DNA of 64,000 bases, taken from contig CALJAP010000021.1 in the NCBI GenBank assembly GCA_938027655.1, positions 15,879 to 79,878 on the forward strand, in the 5' to 3' direction. This document shows, one piece after another, positions 2,794-45,917 of the stretch. A program made the position numbers and the translations under genes. A model generated the notes under the pieces. That model was given only the letters and a program-made list of their open reading frames with translations, ran no database searches and was not told the DNA's origin. Origin of the DNA: an uncultured bacterium (GTDB lineage Bacteria; Armatimonadota; HRBIN16). Each line of letters begins with the position of its first letter. The first letter of the stretch is position 1.

Positions 2794-4404
<1,611 letters not shown>

Positions 4405-4418
4405 TCATCCCTCCTCTC

Positions 4419-4730
4419 TTATTTCTCCAGAACTGCCAGCACGTCGTCCTGGCGCAGGATAACGTACTCTTCGCCGTTGATTTTGATTTCGGTACCACCG
4501 TACTTGGAGTAGAAGATAACGTCGCCCACTTTGACTTCCATCTCCACCACTTTGCCGTTGTCCAGCATCTTACCGGGACCGACGGCGACAACCTCGCCCT
4601 TCTGGGGTTTCTCTTTGGCAGTATCGGGCAGCACGATGCCTCCACTGGTTACCTCTTCGGCTTCCATCGGCTTGACGACAATGCGGTCTGCAAGCGGTTT
4701 GAGCTGTACCTTGACTGCAGTCTCAGGCAT
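4419..4730 (-). CDS. groS: Co-chaperonin GroES (Cpn10)
   Basis: 103-aa product ending ILAVLEK; lies immediately upstream of groEL in the operon. Confidence 0.95.
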
Positions 4731-6115: not shown

Positions 6116-7051
6116 GTGGCATTCGTCGAAACACACAACCTGACCAAAAAGTACGGTAATCTGGTAGCGGTGAATAATCTGAATCTGCGCCTGGACGAAG
6201 GGGACATTCTCGGCTTTATTGGACCCAACGGTGCAGGCAAGACCACGACCATCCGGATACTTGCCACCCTGCTGGAACCGACGAGCGGTACCGCTACCAT
6301 CGCAGGGCACGACGTGGTGAAGGAGCCGGAAGCGGTGCGACGGATTATCGGCTACATGCCCGACTTTTTCGGCGTGTACGATGATGTGAAGGTGTGGGAG
6401 TATCTGGACTTTTTCGCGTGCGCCTACCGCGTGCCTCGCTCGGAGCGGGCAAAGCTGATCGATGATGTGCTCGCGTTAACCGACCTGTCGCATAAGAAAG
6501 ACGACTACGTGGAAGCGCTCTCGCGCGGAATGAAGCAGAGGCTATGCCTTGCCAAAACCCTGCTGCACAACCCGCAGGTGCTGTTGCTGGACGAACCGGC
6601 ATCGGGCTTGGACCCACGCGCCCGCATCGAGATAAAAGAACTGTTGAAAGAACTGCGGAACATGGGCAAGACCATCCTTATCTCCTCGCACATTCTGCCC
6701 GAACTGGCGGATATCTGCAACAAGATTGCCATCATCGAGCGCGGAGAACTGCTCATCAGCGGCGAGATCGATACCATCATGCGCCAGCTGACCGGCTCGC
6801 ATGTGCTGGAGATCAAGGTTGCCGACGATGAGGAAGCCGCCGTGCAGGTGCTGCAGAACCAGCTGGAGGACATCCGTGAGGTGCGGGTGGAGGATGGGGT
6901 TATTCGGGCGCACTATGTCGGTCCCCCAGGCGAACACTACCGCGTGGTGTGGGCACTGGCTGAAAAACGGGTAAAGGTGCTCTCCTTTGCCGAGCAGCCT
7001 ACCGACCTCGAAGACATCTTTATGCGCGTCACACAGGGAGTGGTGCAGTAG
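6116..7051 (+). CDS. ABC transporter ATP-binding protein (ABC-2 type)
   Basis: Walker A GPNGAGKTT, LSRGMKQRL signature and Walker B LLLDEP. The start is probably GTG at 6116, with GAGGAG 7 nt upstream. The ORF track extends the frame to 6077. Confidence 0.85.
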   Translation: MAFVETHNLTKKYGNLVAVNNLNLRLDEGDILGFIGPNGAGKTTTIRILATLLEPTSGTATIAGHDVVKEPEAVRRIIGYMPDFFGVYDDVKVWEYLDFFACAYRVPRSERAKLIDDVLALTDLSHKKDDYVEALSRGMKQRLCLAKTLLHNPQVLLLDEPASGLDPRARIEIKELLKELRNMGKTILISSHILPELADICNKIAIIERGELLISGEIDTIMRQLTGSHVLEIKVADDEEAAVQVLQNQLEDIREVRVEDGVIRAHYVGPPGEHYRVVWALAEKRVKVLSFAEQPTDLEDIFMRVTQGVVQ

Positions 7052-40805: not shown

Positions 40806-43109
40806 TCAGTACGCCCACCCTCCGCCTGTCTCCAGCGACTGCCCGAACTGTCCGATGCCAAACCTCTGCACCTCGTGGAAGGCTTTGATGCGTAGGCGGA
40901 AGATCACCTCGCGGTCGGCACGGAAGCCCAGCGGGTTGTCGATATACCCTACGCTCAACTCCCAGCAGTGCAGGTCCCACGTCAGCAGGAGCTGCCTGCC
41001 CTCAAAGCGATTCACGTAGCCGTTGTAGGTGAGAACGGTCTGCACGCGCAGGGGCATTCGGAATATCTGCGTGTCCAGCCAGAGGTTCGCGCTCGCCCAG
41101 CGGTGGCGGATGGGGTCGTACACTCCGTTCAAGTTCATCGAGAAGGGGGCGGTGCGGGCACGCAGGTATGCACGCAGATAGTTCCACTGCCCCTCGTTAA
41201 GGTTCAGCGTGGATTGCACATTCAGCTGCCATGCGGGGTTCGGTTGCCACAGCACGCCCAGGTTCAACGGCTGCCAGGGGCGGCTGCCACGCTGTCGGGC
41301 AAAGAGGTCGTAGCCGGTATACGCCCGGACGGATAGAGCGCGGCTCGCGTTCCACTCCAGCCCCGCCGAGGCGAAGTTCGTGGCGCCAGTATACTCCGTG
41401 CGCAGGGGGGTAAATCCATACGGACGCAGATAACGGTAGTTCATATACCATCGGCTGTTTTGCCCGAAGCGCAGCTGCCAGTCGGAGTTACCTTGCAGGA
41501 TATACTGGGCGGTTCCATCGCTGGTAAACACCTGTCGGAAGAGGGCGGAGGTGCTCAACGAGCTTCTGCCTCCGCTGGAGGTGGTAGGGGTCCAGCGGGC
41601 TTCAAACAGCACACGCTGAATCGGATTGCCCTGCGGCAGCTCGCGGAAACTGCCCAGCCCCAGCTGCATCTGTAGTCCCATCTCCTTACCGAACAGACGG
41701 CGGTCGGTGGTAGAGAGGAGCAGCTCGGGCGTTTTTTCGATGCCGCCGAAGGTGAAGCCTCCCGTCTGCCCACCGATGGGGATAATCCGGTTGAAGGCGA
41801 GGCTCCAGTCAAACTTGCTACTGCTGCCGCTTAGTGAGGCTTGCGTGGCGAGCTGTTCTTGCTCGGAGCGCACCTCCCCGCCCGATTGCGAGCGGAAGCG
41901 CGACAGGTCGGTAGAGAAGGTCAGCGAGGCGCGCGTGCCCCAGCGTTGATTCCATCGGAGTGAACTGGTGGAGGAATCGGTAGAATAGCCCGCACTGCTC
42001 TGCTGGCTGAGACGCGAGAGAAGGGACAGGTTGCCCGACGACCACGCCCGGCTCAAGCTCACCTGCCAGCTGGATGCACGGGTATCCGAGTAGTACAGAT
42101 AGCTTCCCGAACGCAGGTCGCCAGTAAGCCGTGCGTTAAAGCCCAGCAGTTGCTGTTCATGGCGCAGCTGCGCGGTGACGGAGCGGGTAGCGCGACTGCG
42201 GTCGTTCAGGTAGTAGAACGAAAGGAGCCCGGCAGCGCCCTTCCAGAGATACTGCTGGTCGACGCCCAATCCGATACCCTTTTTCTGCATCAGGTCAATG
42301 CGCGCCGTGCCCGCGTTGTCGCCCAGCAGGTAGCCCAGCGCGGTCTTCACATAATACCCCTCTTCCACCGACTGCCCGACCTGCGGCAGGGTACCACGCG
42401 AGAGGCGTCTGTCCAGCGGCACCACCAGCGTGGGTAAGGTAAACAGTTTGCGACCCAGCGCATTCAAGCTGACCGCTCGTGCTACCAGACGCTTATCCAC
42501 CACCACGTCCACGCTGCGGGTGGAAAAATGGTAATGTGGGTGCTCCAGCAAACAGGTAGTCGCCTCACCGTGTTGCATCTGGGCATGCTGTTGCTCTCCT
42601 TGCAGTTGCTGCCCGGACAGACGCACCGCACCACGCAGCTGATTTTTGAGAAACTCGGGCAGGAGGTCTGCGCTCGCGCCCTGCATCTGCCACGAGCGTC
42701 GGCGCACATTCAGGCGAAGCATCTCGCCACGTGCGTCCATTCCACCGCCCTCCAGAGTGACCCTGCCCTGAAACAGGTACTCGCCCCTGTCCAGATTGCC
42801 TTCCACGCTTTCTGCCTGAATGGTGTACTCGCGCCAGCGGGCGAGGATGTCGCTCGCCAGCAGGTTGTTCTGGGCGTCCAGAAAAAGGGTGCCGAACCGC
42901 TCGACATCCAGTCGTTCCACCCTGCGCGAGATGGCTTCGGCAGGTGGTTGCGGTTGTTGGGCGAGGGCAATGCCACTATAGAACAGCAGGAGGGTGAGGA
43001 AGAGGGGGAGGAACCTAACCCCCTGTCCCCCTTCCCTACAAGGGAAGGGGGTGCTTTCTGCGCGGCTCCCCTCTCCTCGTAGGAGAGGGGTCGGGGGTGA
43101 GGTCATCAT
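40806..43109 (-). CDS. Outer-membrane beta-barrel protein, possibly LptD/OstA-like
   Basis: The signal-like segment FLPLFLTLLLFYSGIALAQQ follows an odd 30-aa N-terminus. The protein is 768 aa, beta-rich, and ends in an aromatic residue (GGGWAY). ATG ATG at 43109 has RBS GGAGGTGA. The track ORF runs upstream to 43547. Confidence 0.4.
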   Translation of the reverse strand: MMTSPPTPLLRGEGSRAESTPFPCREGGQGVRFLPLFLTLLLFYSGIALAQQPQPPAEAISRRVERLDVERFGTLFLDAQNNLLASDILARWREYTIQAESVEGNLDRGEYLFQGRVTLEGGGMDARGEMLRLNVRRRSWQMQGASADLLPEFLKNQLRGAVRLSGQQLQGEQQHAQMQHGEATTCLLEHPHYHFSTRSVDVVVDKRLVARAVSLNALGRKLFTLPTLVVPLDRRLSRGTLPQVGQSVEEGYYVKTALGYLLGDNAGTARIDLMQKKGIGLGVDQQYLWKGAAGLLSFYYLNDRSRATRSVTAQLRHEQQLLGFNARLTGDLRSGSYLYYSDTRASSWQVSLSRAWSSGNLSLLSRLSQQSSAGYSTDSSTSSLRWNQRWGTRASLTFSTDLSRFRSQSGGEVRSEQEQLATQASLSGSSSKFDWSLAFNRIIPIGGQTGGFTFGGIEKTPELLLSTTDRRLFGKEMGLQMQLGLGSFRELPQGNPIQRVLFEARWTPTTSSGGRSSLSTSALFRQVFTSDGTAQYILQGNSDWQLRFGQNSRWYMNYRYLRPYGFTPLRTEYTGATNFASAGLEWNASRALSVRAYTGYDLFARQRGSRPWQPLNLGVLWQPNPAWQLNVQSTLNLNEGQWNYLRAYLRARTAPFSMNLNGVYDPIRHRWASANLWLDTQIFRMPLRVQTVLTYNGYVNRFEGRQLLLTWDLHCWELSVGYIDNPLGFRADREVIFRLRIKAFHEVQRFGIGQFGQSLETGGGWAY
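43015..43095. repeat. Two adjacent REP-like palindromes (CCCCCTTCCC-tacaa-GGGAAGGGGG and CCCCTCTCC-tcgta-GGAGAGGGG)
   Basis: Perfect 9-10-bp GC stems. A third copy, CCCCTCTCCC-tgtg-GGAGAGGGG, lies at 45861-45885. Confidence 0.6.
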
Positions 43110-43114
43110 CGGCT

Positions 43115-44809
43115 TCACTGCCTCACCTCCCTCTTGCGCTGGGCGGCGCGCATGTTCAAGGTGAGCAGCACGGTAAAGAACAGCGTGTAAAACGCCGCGA
43201 TGCTCCACCGCGAAGGAGCAGGTAACGCCATACTCGCCCATGCCGGGAGTGCTAGCAACCGAACGCTTTTGTCCACCGTCCACGCGCTCAACGCTATTGG
43301 GGCGCAGAGCAAGTCGGGCAGCCAAGGTAGGCACGCTGCCACCAGCCCCGCGCAGGTAAGCACCTGCACCGGCATGGCGATAACAAGGTTGGCTATGGGC
43401 GCAATCAAGGACATTTGACCATAGTATAACGCGGTCAGCGGGGCGGATGCCAGCGTGCAGATGACACTCAAGCACACGACAGCGAGGATTGCTCGCAAGG
43501 GGCGCAGTCTGTCGCTTGCCGCGCCTGTGGCGATAGCCCCGGTCCATCCTGCCGAAGCCACTATCGCAGCCACCAGCGTAAACGAGAACTGAAAGCTGGG
43601 GTCACGCAGTGCGCCGGTGTCTGACAGCACAATCAGGAACCCCGCCAGCGCGAGCGAGGTTGGCAAGTCGCCCTCTCGTTGCAGAGCAGTGGCTCCTGCG
43701 ATAAGCGTGCCCATGATGGCGGCGCGCAAAGAGGGGTCTCCACCTGCAGCCACTCCTGCGAACAACCAAATAACCAGTATAACCGCCAGCGCAGAAGCCT
43801 TGCGTGACAGGTTGGCAAACCGGCATATCGCCCACACCGCTATCGCCAGCATCGAAACGTGCGTTCCCGATGGCGAGAGGATATGTACTGTGCCGGTACG
43901 CCGGAAGTTTTCGCGAATGGCATCGTCCAGTTTTACACGGTCGTTCAGCACAATTGCAGCGGCGATGTGTCCTTCGCGCGTGGGCAGATGGAGGCGCAGG
44001 TTGCGTATCAACATCCGGCGCAAGCGCGAGAAGAGAACGCTCCAGTGCGGTTGGGGCAGGTGCTGGATGCGGTATGGACGCAACGTTCTGGAGATGCCTT
44101 GCCTGCGCAGGTATCGCGCAAACGATGCGTCCGGGTCTGTCGGCGTGGCGGAGGGCATCCGTAACCTGCCCTCCAGGTGCACACGTTCACCCGCGAATAC
44201 GTTGTCTACCAGCGTTTCCGGCACATGCACCCACAGACGCACCGGCGTGCGAATGGTGCGGTGTGCAGTAACCAGGCTTTCTGTGCGCAGGACAAACCGC
44301 CATGTACCCGCTTTTCGGGTCGGCTCTGTGGTCACCACGCCGGTAGCCGCCACCACCTCGTCGCGGGGCAGGGTGCGCCAGAGCAGGTCATCGCGGTAGG
44401 CGTAGCGAATGCCCTGTGTTGCGCCCAACCACAGCGCCAGCACACTCAACAGGGCGGTTGTTGCGGAAAGCAGCCGATACCGCTGGAGTAGCCATCCGCC
44501 AGCGGTCAGGAGCAGACATCCCTGTATCACCGGCAGGGGAGAAAAGGTCACGCCTGCGGCAGCTCCCGCCAGGTAGCCGCCGCAGAAAGTTGCCAGCGGT
44601 CTGCCGTTGACCGCTTGAAACCGTTTGCGCCACCTCTTCTCAAAGGCTGCAGATTGCATCCGTGCCCGCGCTCCGGCGTAGTGGTTCGTTATACCGCTTT
44701 CTCTGAAGGGCGTCATGTTCCTGCCGTACCGTTTGGGACAGGAGAGGGTTTCAGTCCCAGTGCGCGCCCGACAGATTGCCCGCACAAAAGGAAAATCCCC
44801 CTCCTGCAT
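43115..44809 (-). CDS. comEC: ComEC/Rec2-family DNA internalisation channel protein (no beta-lactamase domain)
   Basis: Polytopic membrane protein with the competence domain motif ILSPSGTHVSMLAI. Confidence 0.6.
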   Translation of the reverse strand: MQEGDFPFVRAICRARTGTETLSCPKRYGRNMTPFRESGITNHYAGARARMQSAAFEKRWRKRFQAVNGRPLATFCGGYLAGAAAGVTFSPLPVIQGCLLLTAGGWLLQRYRLLSATTALLSVLALWLGATQGIRYAYRDDLLWRTLPRDEVVAATGVVTTEPTRKAGTWRFVLRTESLVTAHRTIRTPVRLWVHVPETLVDNVFAGERVHLEGRLRMPSATPTDPDASFARYLRRQGISRTLRPYRIQHLPQPHWSVLFSRLRRMLIRNLRLHLPTREGHIAAAIVLNDRVKLDDAIRENFRRTGTVHILSPSGTHVSMLAIAVWAICRFANLSRKASALAVILVIWLFAGVAAGGDPSLRAAIMGTLIAGATALQREGDLPTSLALAGFLIVLSDTGALRDPSFQFSFTLVAAIVASAGWTGAIATGAASDRLRPLRAILAVVCLSVICTLASAPLTALYYGQMSLIAPIANLVIAMPVQVLTCAGLVAACLPWLPDLLCAPIALSAWTVDKSVRLLALPAWASMALPAPSRWSIAAFYTLFFTVLLTLNMRAAQRKREVRQ

Positions 44810-44846: not shown

Positions 44847-45683
44847 TTAAGCCTTTTTGCGCAGGCGCAGCGCCACCGGCGCCAACCCGCTCAGCATCAG
44901 TGCCCACGTGCCCGGCTCGGGAATGACGGGAGCGGGAGGAGGCGGATTGTAACTCAGGTTCACCATTTTGGTCAACCTGCCTTCTAGCGTCTGTTGACCG
45001 GATATCACCTTGCCGCGCCACTGGAACACGTTGGTCATGTCGCCCTGTCCGAAAGGCAGACCCGAATTAGACACGTTGTAAACCGCGTTGTCGTTCAGCA
45101 GGGCGCGCAGGGTTGAGAATGCGCCTGCCTCATACCCAACGAGTCCTGCCTCACTGGCGATAAGGTCTGCCGCGGTGGTACCGTCCACATATCGCACCGT
45201 CTGCGGATTGACGAGAACACCGCTGTCGTCCCACCCTGTGCCGTTCAGGTGAAAGTCCGAATAGGAGAAGAAATCTACATCGAGAGTTGGTCCGGCAGAC
45301 TTGACGGAGAAGTCGATATCCACTTTGGCTACTGTGGGGCTGACACCGGAGAGAGTATAGTTTAGCTCGATGACCAACCCTGCCTGCGCGAAAATCAGTC
45401 GCGCCGTATTTGTGGGGTTTGGAGTTACAAAACTCGGGTTGGACAACGCCTGCTCCGCGTTCATTGTACTGGTGCGGAACCACCACCAGTTCTGATGCAT
45501 ATGGTCTGTACCAGAAGGGTCTTTGAAATCCCCCAAGCCCTGGCTGCCGACGTATTCAGAGTAAGTCCATCCGTTATCGGTTAAGGTAAACGTCTGAGCC
45601 TGCGAACCGCCAGCCAGTATCCAGCCCAGCGTAGCCACCAGGGCGAGACACCACAGGAACCTGCTGCTTGCCATATCAGGCAC
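44847..45683 (-). CDS. PEP-CTERM sorting-signal secreted protein
   Basis: N-terminal signal peptide. The C-terminus VIPEPGTWALMLSGLAPVALRLRKKA is a canonical PEP-CTERM: PEP motif, TM helix and basic tail. Confidence 0.8.
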   Translation of the reverse strand: MPDMASSRFLWCLALVATLGWILAGGSQAQTFTLTDNGWTYSEYVGSQGLGDFKDPSGTDHMHQNWWWFRTSTMNAEQALSNPSFVTPNPTNTARLIFAQAGLVIELNYTLSGVSPTVAKVDIDFSVKSAGPTLDVDFFSYSDFHLNGTGWDDSGVLVNPQTVRYVDGTTAADLIASEAGLVGYEAGAFSTLRALLNDNAVYNVSNSGLPFGQGDMTNVFQWRGKVISGQQTLEGRLTKMVNLSYNPPPPAPVIPEPGTWALMLSGLAPVALRLRKKA

Positions 45684-45860
45684 CTCCTATCGAAATGTGT
45701 TCTCGCCCTTAATTTAATGCAAAGTCTGTACCAAAGGTGCTGGGCAAAATACGGGTTGTTGGCATAGTGCGGCAGAAAAACGGCAAGATTGCTGTCAGTA
45801 AACTTGCGGGGAAACCCGTTGCAAAAGCTGGTCTAACGATGATGAAAGCAGGAGCATCTC

Positions 45861-45885
45861 CCCTCTCCCTGTGGGAGAGGGGACG
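45861..45885. repeat. REP-like palindrome CCCCTCTCCC-tgtg-GGAGAGGGG downstream of ggt
   Basis: Same stem sequence as the palindrome at 43063-43085. Confidence 0.55.
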
Positions 45886-45917
45886 GGGGAGAGGTTACAA
45901 TCAGATTCTTCGCTGTG

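Follow-up and report, generated by a model that had tools for sequence, protein, structure and literature searches.

Intrastrand triplex motifs that are rich in G/C are short repeats that were first described as BoxC, later as PIT elements, and were then characterised under the name TM, or TMECO for the E. coli repeats, in the study of Holder et al. 2015 (PMC4666352). A TM is defined there by a pyrimidine arm and a complementary purine arm, which form a stem of 6-15 nt with a loop of 1-6 nt, and by a mirror third block that pairs as G.G, A.A or T.A triads (class II) (PMC4666352). As single-stranded DNA, TMECO folds into an intramolecular triplex by circular dichroism and nuclear magnetic resonance, and this triplex was not detected in vivo (PMC4666352). 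BoxC has been treated as an intergenic family (PMC2267715). In-frame insertion of palindromic repeats into functional genes is known from the Rickettsia palindromic elements (RPE; Ogata et al. 2000, summarised in PMC10969869). Here we analysed a stretch of 64,000 nt (hereafter the window) of contig CALJAP010000021.1 from an uncultured Armatimonadota bacterium (GCA_938027655.1), in which an inverted pair of TMs (43013-43103, minus strand) lies inside the first codons of an outer-membrane protein (OMP) gene (40806-43118, minus strand, 770 codons from GTG). The TM pair is probably (roughly 80%) a dispersed repeat that is translated as a long, cleavable signal-peptide n-region, with the start at a GTG (43118) coupled to the preceding comEC-like gene. 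The repeat family is known, but it has not been described from such a location, and our search of the open-access literature turned up no palindromic repeat within the n-region of a signal peptide.

The genes around the pair are on the minus strand. Palindrome 1 (43027-43051) reads CCCCCTTCCCT-aca-AGGGAAGGGGG and has a perfect 11-bp stem, palindrome 2 (43068-43090) reads CCCCTCTCC-tcgta-GGAGAGGGG and is also perfect, and a third palindrome of the type of palindrome 2 was found at 45859-45883 (TCCCCTCTCCC-tgt-GGGAGAGGGGA), near ggt. An earlier note on this DNA, made from the letters alone, had listed all three with coordinates that were right within 1-3 nt, and it had correctly given the translation as MMTSPPTPLLRGEGSRAESTPFPCREGGQGVRF followed by FLPLFLTLLLF. 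Dinucleotide-preserving shuffles of the window (n = 100) served as the chance control, and each palindrome pattern occurred 0 times in them, which means that none is expected by chance. Palindromes 1 and 2 are not independent, being the halves of one composite of about 90 bp (43013-43103), whose outer arms ACCTCACCCCC (43103-43093) and GGGGGTTAGGT (43023-43013) pair and enclose both hairpins. The folded composite region has a minimum free energy (MFE) of -77 kcal/mol (z = -3.8).

The half next to the start codon is TM-1 (H1 type; 43068-43103, plus strand), which consists of CCCCTCTCC(T), the loop, (A)GGAGAGGGG, a 3-nt spacer and the mirror third block GGGGTGAGGT. The other half is TM-2 (H2 type; 43013-43051, minus strand), read as CCCCCTTCCCT-tgt-AGGGAAGGGGG, a 3-nt spacer and the third block GGGGGTTAGGT, whose reading as G-V-R-F directly adjoins the hydrophobic core. 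Between the hairpins lies a spacer of 16 nt (43052-43067, minus strand; AGCCGCGCAGAAAGCA), which is conserved neither in length nor in sequence among orthologs. On the coding strand the order is therefore the reverse complement of TM-1 (rcTM-1), spacer, TM-2, an inverted pair with the third strands outside. Counted from GTG 43118, the composite encodes T6-R35 and the first base of F36. The third palindrome is part of a solo TM (45859-45895, plus strand) composed of TCCCCTCTCCC-tgt-GGGAGAGGGGA, a 2-nt spacer and GGGGAGAGGT.

Judged by their sequence, the palindromes belong to the TM (= BoxC = PIT) family and not to the classical repetitive extragenic palindromes (REP), because each hairpin has a mirror-repeat third block. 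A purpose-written scan found this block in register in 10/10 triads for TM-1, 10/11 for TM-2 and 9/10 for the solo TM, with stems of 10, 11 and 11 bp, respectively. The three-block architecture, with 2-3 nt before a mirror purine-rich third block, is the one of TMECO and fits Table 1 of PMC4666352. The core CCCTCTCCC / GGGAGAGGG / GGGGTGAGGG is also near-identical, and TM-1 as well as the solo TM match the family consensus CCCTCTCCC ... GGGAGAGGG ... GGGGTGAGGG. TM-2 is a variant (GGGAAGGGGG / GGGGGTTAGG when set against TMECO, CCCTTCCC / GGGAAGGG / GGGGGTTAGG in its three blocks) that accompanies TM-1 in Armatimonadota and cyanobacteria. Both TMECO and the repeats studied here are dispersed, occur in inverted ("palindromic") pairs, and sit at loci that vary among close relatives. 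However, the E. coli copies are "always located intergenically" and their pairs have the third strands inside (PMC4666352), whereas the window pair is in a coding sequence and apparently translated, has its third strands outside (rcTM-spacer-TM), and is hosted by a thermophilic member of the Armatimonadota.

The census of the palindrome that the earlier note had proposed was carried out as a scan for the exact H1 palindrome in reference genomes, one per species, and it gave at least 120 stretches in many phyla. Among the matches listed were Planctomycetota, Chloroflexota, Cyanobacteria, Xanthomonadales, Pseudomonas, Acidobacteriota, Gemmatimonadota, Armatimonadota and others, and nearly all of the listed matches were flanked on one side only, by CCCTCACCCC-NN ahead of the hairpin or by the complementary NN-GGGGTGAGGG behind it. 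The same note had called the palindromes REP-like, which holds loosely for GC palindromes but not for the family. REP and bacterial interspersed mosaic elements (BIME), which are GTAG/CGTC-tagged and mobilised by REP-associated tyrosine transposases (RAYT; PMC3733652), are likewise short GC-rich multi-copy palindromes that often form inverted pairs. In contrast, the window stems are homopurine/homopyrimidine with a third mirror block, and the TM sequence is common to many phyla, whereas REPs are species-specific. No GTAG/CGTC head was found at the stems, whose flanks are CCCCCGA / AGCC and AGCA / ACAG, and this absence ruled out a REP sensu stricto. No RAYT gene turned up in the sequence examined, and the source genome was not searched for one. 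As to miniature inverted-repeat transposable elements, the outer arms ACCTCACCCCC and GGGGGTTAGGT are indeed inverted repeats, but no target-site duplication is visible. An Rfam scan of 42900-43250 at E <= 10 returned sub-threshold chance matches only (miRNA precursors etc.), which ruled out a described RNA family as the identity of this region.

The composite is dispersed. The same pair, some 90 bp long, sharply bounded and variable in its inner spacer, was also found in the related loci L001, L005, L007 and L009 (three places in the last), and in the cyanobacterial loci L055 and L126. Counting single TMs, there are three in the 64-kb window and more in the spacers of L001 and L009. L009, from a related metagenome-assembled genome (MAG), carries the composite at 4398-4484 and 6689-6771, in two intergenic spacers (MCP-GATase and Tricorn-MCP). 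Between MCP and GATase, the spacer that is filled in L009 is empty in L001, a close relative, and the Tricorn-MCP spacer is filled in L009 and L001 and empty in the more distant L002. We saw no target-site duplication at the OMP site or at the filled/empty MCP-GATase site, where the extra bases differ. In this lineage of hot-spring Armatimonadota, the inverted TM pair thus forms a dispersed unit some 90 bp in length.

Whether the repeat is translated was judged from 25 orthologous comEC-OMP loci, and the order comEC then OMP gene is kept in all of them. With the conserved mature-protein motif [ED]RFGTLFLDA as the anchor, the distance from the comEC stop to the anchor was 2 mod 3 in 25/25 loci. 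Loci without a TM insert had distances of 107, 119, 122, 137, 146, 170, 176 and 263 nt, and those of the TM clade, all in frame, had 212, 224, 233, 242, 275, 287 and 335 nt. A tree of the mature protein placed the element-bearing genes in a single clade. The number of composites at the site varies within this clade: one in the window and L001, two in L005 and L010, and about one and a half in L009. A hairpin of another kind accompanies two composites in L006, one in L007 and at least one in L011, where the contig is cut. L008 and L150 have decayed copies without hairpin potential, and the frame is kept there too. Such variation in copy number agrees with what Holder et al. reported on local instability at TM loci (PMC4666352).

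The frames in which the hairpins are read are not the same. Five orthologs have H1 in phase 1, but L001 and L009, with 10 additional nt upstream, have it in phase 2. In L001 a spacer that is shorter by 4 nt brings the phase back, and in L009 the first H2 stands in a third phase, with the frame regained ahead of the last H2. All orthologs have the 3' arm of that last H2 in the same phase, where it is read G-V-R-F. Compensated frameshifts of this kind are what selection on a translated region would produce, and we conclude that translation most likely starts at the comEC-coupled codon and runs through the repeat. Element-free orthologs all start at an ATGA/GTGA overlap with comEC and continue with MKR or MRR and the hydrophobic core, as in L002 (MKRLALMGMLVALCTWGSA/QP, with the slash at the predicted cleavage site). 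The comparison with element-free orthologs, which show MKR and the hydrophobic core in the same phase, had been suggested in the earlier note, and its outcome favours insertion. Conservation of the N-terminal peptide, named there as the sign against an insertion, was not what we saw, as the orthologs keep the DNA repeat and not the peptide, with H1 in two frames. The first possibility of that note, that a repeat inserted into the 5' coding region and gave an N-terminal extension, was thus supported by the 25 loci. A search of a protein database with the 60-aa element peptide gave two word-sharing candidates and no hits, with a word index that is unsuited to such a low-complexity peptide.

An unrelated palindrome of the type GTAGCCGCAGGC-ttca-GCCTGCGCCTAC, with a REP-style GTAG head, was noticed in the same n-region of L006 (3211-3230), L007 (2700-2719) and L011 (85-104). 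It is confined to one sub-clade, was not found elsewhere in the loci collected, and is read VAAGFSLRL just before the hydrophobic core.

Three in-frame start candidates precede the element in the window, ATG 43109, ATG 43106 and GTG 43118. The first of these had been taken for the only in-frame ATG and credited with a good ribosome binding site, and neither statement stood, since there is a second ATG and the GGAGG (43130-43126) is 16 nt from ATG 43109 but 7 nt from GTG 43118. By direct reading of the sequence, the Shine-Dalgarno-like motif is GGGAGG (43126-43131, minus strand). The GTG (43116-43118, minus strand) overlaps the stop codon TGA (43117-43115) of the comEC-like gene (43115-44809, minus strand; Competence and DUF4131 domains) as GTGA. 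In the element-free L015, L017 and L022, GTG-AAG is the only possible start, and its homolog in the window is GTG 43118-AAG. The start is therefore most likely GTG 43118, translationally coupled to comEC, and not ATG 43109. Ribosomes would begin there, next to the comEC stop and 7 nt from the GGAGG, and would read through both hairpins. The element would have been inserted once, in the ancestor of one clade, and the site would later have gained extra copies or a second kind of hairpin, or have decayed, with the reading frame always kept.

What the element encodes is the n-region of a putative Sec signal peptide. Downstream of T6-R35 come the hydrophobic core, FLPLFLTLLLF, and the c-region (42960-43013, minus strand; F36-A53, FLPLFLTLLLFYSGIALA), with predicted cleavage after A-L-A, before Q54. 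Signal peptides for signal peptidase I were recognised by a hydrophobic core 10-16 residues long behind a positive n-region and by small residues at -3/-1 (A-x-A); here we found a net charge of +2, R35 adjoining the core, and A-L-A/QQ. The n-region has 35 aa in the window and 30-77 aa across the clade, with a net charge from 0 to +8, compared with 3 aa (MKR) in the simplest orthologs. An R or K always stands directly before the core, mostly an Arg from the element's own 3' arm, and the AxA/Q site is retained. The 3' arm of the element (G-V-R-F) would thus give the positive charge beside the hydrophobic core, and signal peptidase would cut off the whole extension (A-L-A/Q) and leave the mature protein unchanged. 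The simplest reason why this position appears to tolerate repeated insertion is that the extension would lie wholly upstream of the cleavage site.

Long N-terminal extensions before the core were also noticed in more distant OMP homologs (P0029 and P0030, 35% identical; L151 and L152) and in the clade of P0022-P0026, with PPPSGSPRFARGT... and SLPPCLSRERERAR... as examples among all of these. These extensions may derive from other GC-rich repeats, which suggests that the n-region of this OMP is generally permissive.

Some secreted proteins, for example autotransporters, carry an N-terminal extension (the extended signal peptide region, ESPR) before a normal n-h-c signal peptide, which is removed together with it and, in the ESPR, has a conserved motif and a proposed function. 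The extension in the window is likewise a pre-signal extension, but it is repeat-derived, variable (30-77 aa) and not conserved as a peptide. The likeness to RPE lies in short palindromic repeats that are translated in frame and tolerated at permissive positions, so that the repeat and not the host function explains the peptide. There is no sequence relationship to RPE, which are AT-rich, about 100-150 bp long, restricted to Rickettsia, and encode a conserved peptide in one frame. In contrast, hairpins of the window type are read in differing frames and sit in a signal peptide that is predicted to be cleaved, not in the mature protein.

The host gene was assessed by three features of LptD, an N-terminal beta-jellyroll, a 26-stranded beta-barrel and a match to the LptD profile. 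The protein scored E = 3e-6 and 25.6 bits against NCBIfam LptD NF002997, for which the cutoff is 683. A Pfam scan of the protein gave no hit, and a sequence search of the PDB with the OMP profile gave nothing meaningful. Homologs are confined to hot-spring Armatimonadota, and one of them has been named "LPS-assembly protein" by JGI. In the AlphaFold2 model (pLDDT 51), residues 1-35 are disordered and residues 36-51 form a helix; the model further shows a beta domain at the N-terminus and some 26 long strands. In a Foldseek comparison with the PDB, the top 15 were all LptD with E as low as 5e-16, but the TM-scores (template modelling scores) were 0.16-0.23. From these predictions we regard the host gene as LptD-like with moderate confidence.

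The TM modules are conserved at the DNA level beyond what the surrounding codons would lead one to expect. In the more diverged pairs they differ by 11-19%, compared with 34-45% at fourfold-degenerate sites (P 2e-10 to 3e-6), which means that they evolve 2-4 times slower than the fourfold sites of the same gene (window vs L001, L007 and L009). Neither the inner spacer nor the codons that stand upstream of the element show conservation. Since H1 is read in different frames, the conservation is at the level of the nucleic acid. It may reflect either copy-correction by other genomic copies (concerted evolution) or a selected structural role. Concerted evolution is usual for dispersed repeats.

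A selected role would mean that the element has been exapted, either as RNA hairpins that tune translation of the OMP relative to comEC (e.g., by temperature-dependent unfolding immediately beyond the initiating ribosome) or as non-B DNA that drives length variation of the signal peptide. The divergence of 0.11-0.19 vs 0.34-0.45 at fourfold sites despite the differing frames of H1 would suit such a role, as would a structure that starts 15 nt past the start codon and a copy number at the site that varies among close relatives, which fits the reported TM instability (PMC4666352). The MFE fold of 42990-43135 (minus strand) also pairs the Shine-Dalgarno region AAGAGGGAGG with CCUCCCCCUCUU, the FLPLFL codons downstream of the element, and thereby closes a three-way junction. 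However, this pairing is missing from the centroid structure and may be chance purine/pyrimidine complementarity. The hairpins have decayed in L008 and L150 while the mature protein is unchanged, and the predicted accessibility of the Shine-Dalgarno/start region at 37 and 65 C overlaps between the two groups (means 0.26 for element-bearing and 0.37 for element-free loci). Intergenic copies are conserved equally well, so the conservation seems to belong to the repeat family as such (copy-correction) rather than to the site, and PIT/TM elements had neither promoter nor terminator activity in E. coli (PMC4666352). We therefore consider exaptation unlikely.

Far less probable is a structured 5' untranslated region (UTR), in which translation starts at a non-canonical codon after the palindromes and the hairpins form an untranslated leader between comEC and the OMP gene, as the earlier note had offered as its second possibility. 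The very stable fold (-77 kcal/mol), a G-rich 3' arm that reads as Shine-Dalgarno-like, and the otherwise intergenic reports of TM/BoxC repeats (PMC4666352) would agree with it. But there is no in-frame ATG, GTG or TTG between the palindromes and the hydrophobic segment, the codons after the element vary among orthologs (TTC CTC, TTC ATC, TTT TTC, TTC TTC) and offer no plausible conserved start, and the first in-frame CTG/GTG/TTG lies deep in the hydrophobic core, which would leave no signal peptide. Moreover, the element-free orthologs use the comEC-overlapping start, and an untranslated leader needs neither the frame that is kept in 25/25 loci over seven insert lengths nor the compensation that accompanies every frame-shifting change in length.

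A pseudogenised or misassembled 5' end, with LptD function supplied elsewhere, is hardly credible: repeats are hard to assemble and the OMP ortholog in L009 is split into two ORFs, but the same architecture recurs in independent NCBI, JGI and Logan assemblies, synteny and the comEC start/stop overlap are conserved, and the mature part aligns over 698 colinear codons with dN/dS of 0.05-0.09 at dS 0.35-1.0, a strong purifying selection from which it follows that these are not pseudogenes and that the insertion is old. In L009 (10001-12381; MAG GCA_017880035.1) the OMP ortholog is called as open reading frames (ORFs) of 451 and 355 aa, by a frameshift or an assembly error.

For the translated repeat itself, several points weigh on the other side. 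Sec signal peptides rarely have an n-region as long as 35-77 aa, and the LptD assignment is weak, with an NCBIfam score far below the cutoff, a pLDDT of 51 and TM-scores of about 0.2. The OMP frame stays open upstream as far as 43547 inside comEC, and in GC-rich DNA openness alone says little. Conservation of the TM modules exceeds that of synonymous sites, which pure neutrality does not predict. The ortholog configurations are related by descent and are not independent trials, and the start codon in use, Sec export and cleavage, and the neutrality of the insert are what we infer from the comparison. With these points taken into account, the signal-peptide TM pair is a well-supported curiosity.

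Coding-region TMs were also looked for elsewhere with a stop-to-stop ORF screen of the TM loci. This gave 113 ORFs of at least 250 aa and is very noisy in GC-rich DNA, and cases were kept only if Pfam domains lay on both sides of the TM. In-frame TM peptides between or within Pfam domains were found in methionyl-tRNA synthetase (MetRS; L033), a Type ISP restriction-modification enzyme (L066) and an MmeI-like methylase (L139). HypF has an in-frame TM in L085, confirmed by Pfam, and L122 is HypF-like and similar by eye only. DNA polymerase I (Pol I) of L098 has an in-frame TM-type hairpin (hairpin only) between its 5'-3' exo and 3'-5' exo domains, and a P-type ATPase (L136) has an in-frame TM in its HAD domain. 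TMs thus occur in coding regions in other phyla, and therefore the case is not unique to the window. A family described as strictly intergenic can live inside essential-type genes where the extra peptide would be harmless, in a signal peptide with predicted cleavage here and in inter-domain linkers of MetRS, HypF and Pol I elsewhere. The length instability associated with TMs acts here on a coding sequence under frame constraint. For annotation, GC-rich peptides of the "PLPxGEGxGVR" type at N-termini or in linkers can be genuine translated repeats and not mis-called starts.

The TMs of L033 (2110-2650), L066 (4558-5012) and L139 (7323-7843) stand on either side of a complete DUF559 nuclease domain, which shares the reading frame of the host protein. 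L085, L098 and L136 have no DUF559, and same-frame Pfam domains flank the TM on both sides there. Where a DUF559 gene was present in a TM-centred locus (L033, L066, L139, L030, L105 and L137), a TM was 1-87 bp away in 6/6, mostly on both sides. Two DUF559 genes chosen regardless of TMs, from an Armatimonadota MAG and from Undibacterium (L155 16-456 and L156 1454-1479), both had TM hairpins within about 60 nt upstream. From a protein database, 33/120 DUF559 ORFs run into TM-like peptides, and P0060 repeats a DUF559-TM-tRNA_bind fusion. In E. coli K-12, the stop codon of ycjD (DUF559; L153, NC_000913 1351204-1351760) lies inside a degenerate TM hairpin, and ycjD is followed by a remnant of a second DUF559 3' end and then by the intact TMECO #9. 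Among 5,426 complete E. coli genomes, similarity to K-12 breaks off about 40 nt before TMECO #9 in about 38% (L153/L154, fabI-ycjD-sapF), which places this TM at a strain-variable junction. In strain TCM3e1, the one genome inspected, a different island (TetR and RND efflux) follows fabI, and a clean absence of the ycjD cassette was not seen. No DUF559 gene was found in the window or in the related loci examined, and no link between DUF559 and TM repeats was apparent from the titles and abstracts of the literature that mentions DUF559. A simple cassette model with inverted terminal TMs and third strands inward was ruled out, as the TM polarity around DUF559 is not fixed.

These observations suggest, as a tentative idea that we hold to be somewhat less probable than its opposite, that TM/BoxC repeats are ends, targets or non-autonomous derivatives of small selfish cassettes encoding a DUF559 (Vsr-like PD-(D/E)XK) nuclease, with the cassettes and their empty TM pairs alike built for in-frame survival in genes, in which case the signal-peptide TM pair would be an empty derivative. 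The link between TMs and DUF559 is a lead and not a result. To our knowledge, the origin and spread of BoxC/PIT/TM have had no explanation since the 1990s, and if the link were true, the origin and cross-phylum spread of these repeats would become directly testable.

A promoter scan over the region of the element found no promoter, and the sole terminator-like match over the element was H2 on the plus strand, antisense to the genes. This stretch (43027-43061, plus strand), made up of H2 with TGCTTTCTGC behind it, runs antisense to the OMP gene and comEC and could act as a stop for antisense transcription. The solo TM has its own flank and sits between ggt (stop 45918) and the start (45683) of a gene for a 278-aa secreted protein (44847-45683, minus strand), which adjoins it downstream. 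The PEP-CTERM sorting motif of this protein is weak, with a Pfam E of 0.0012 that falls just short of the cutoff, and it indicates an exosortase system in the source organism.

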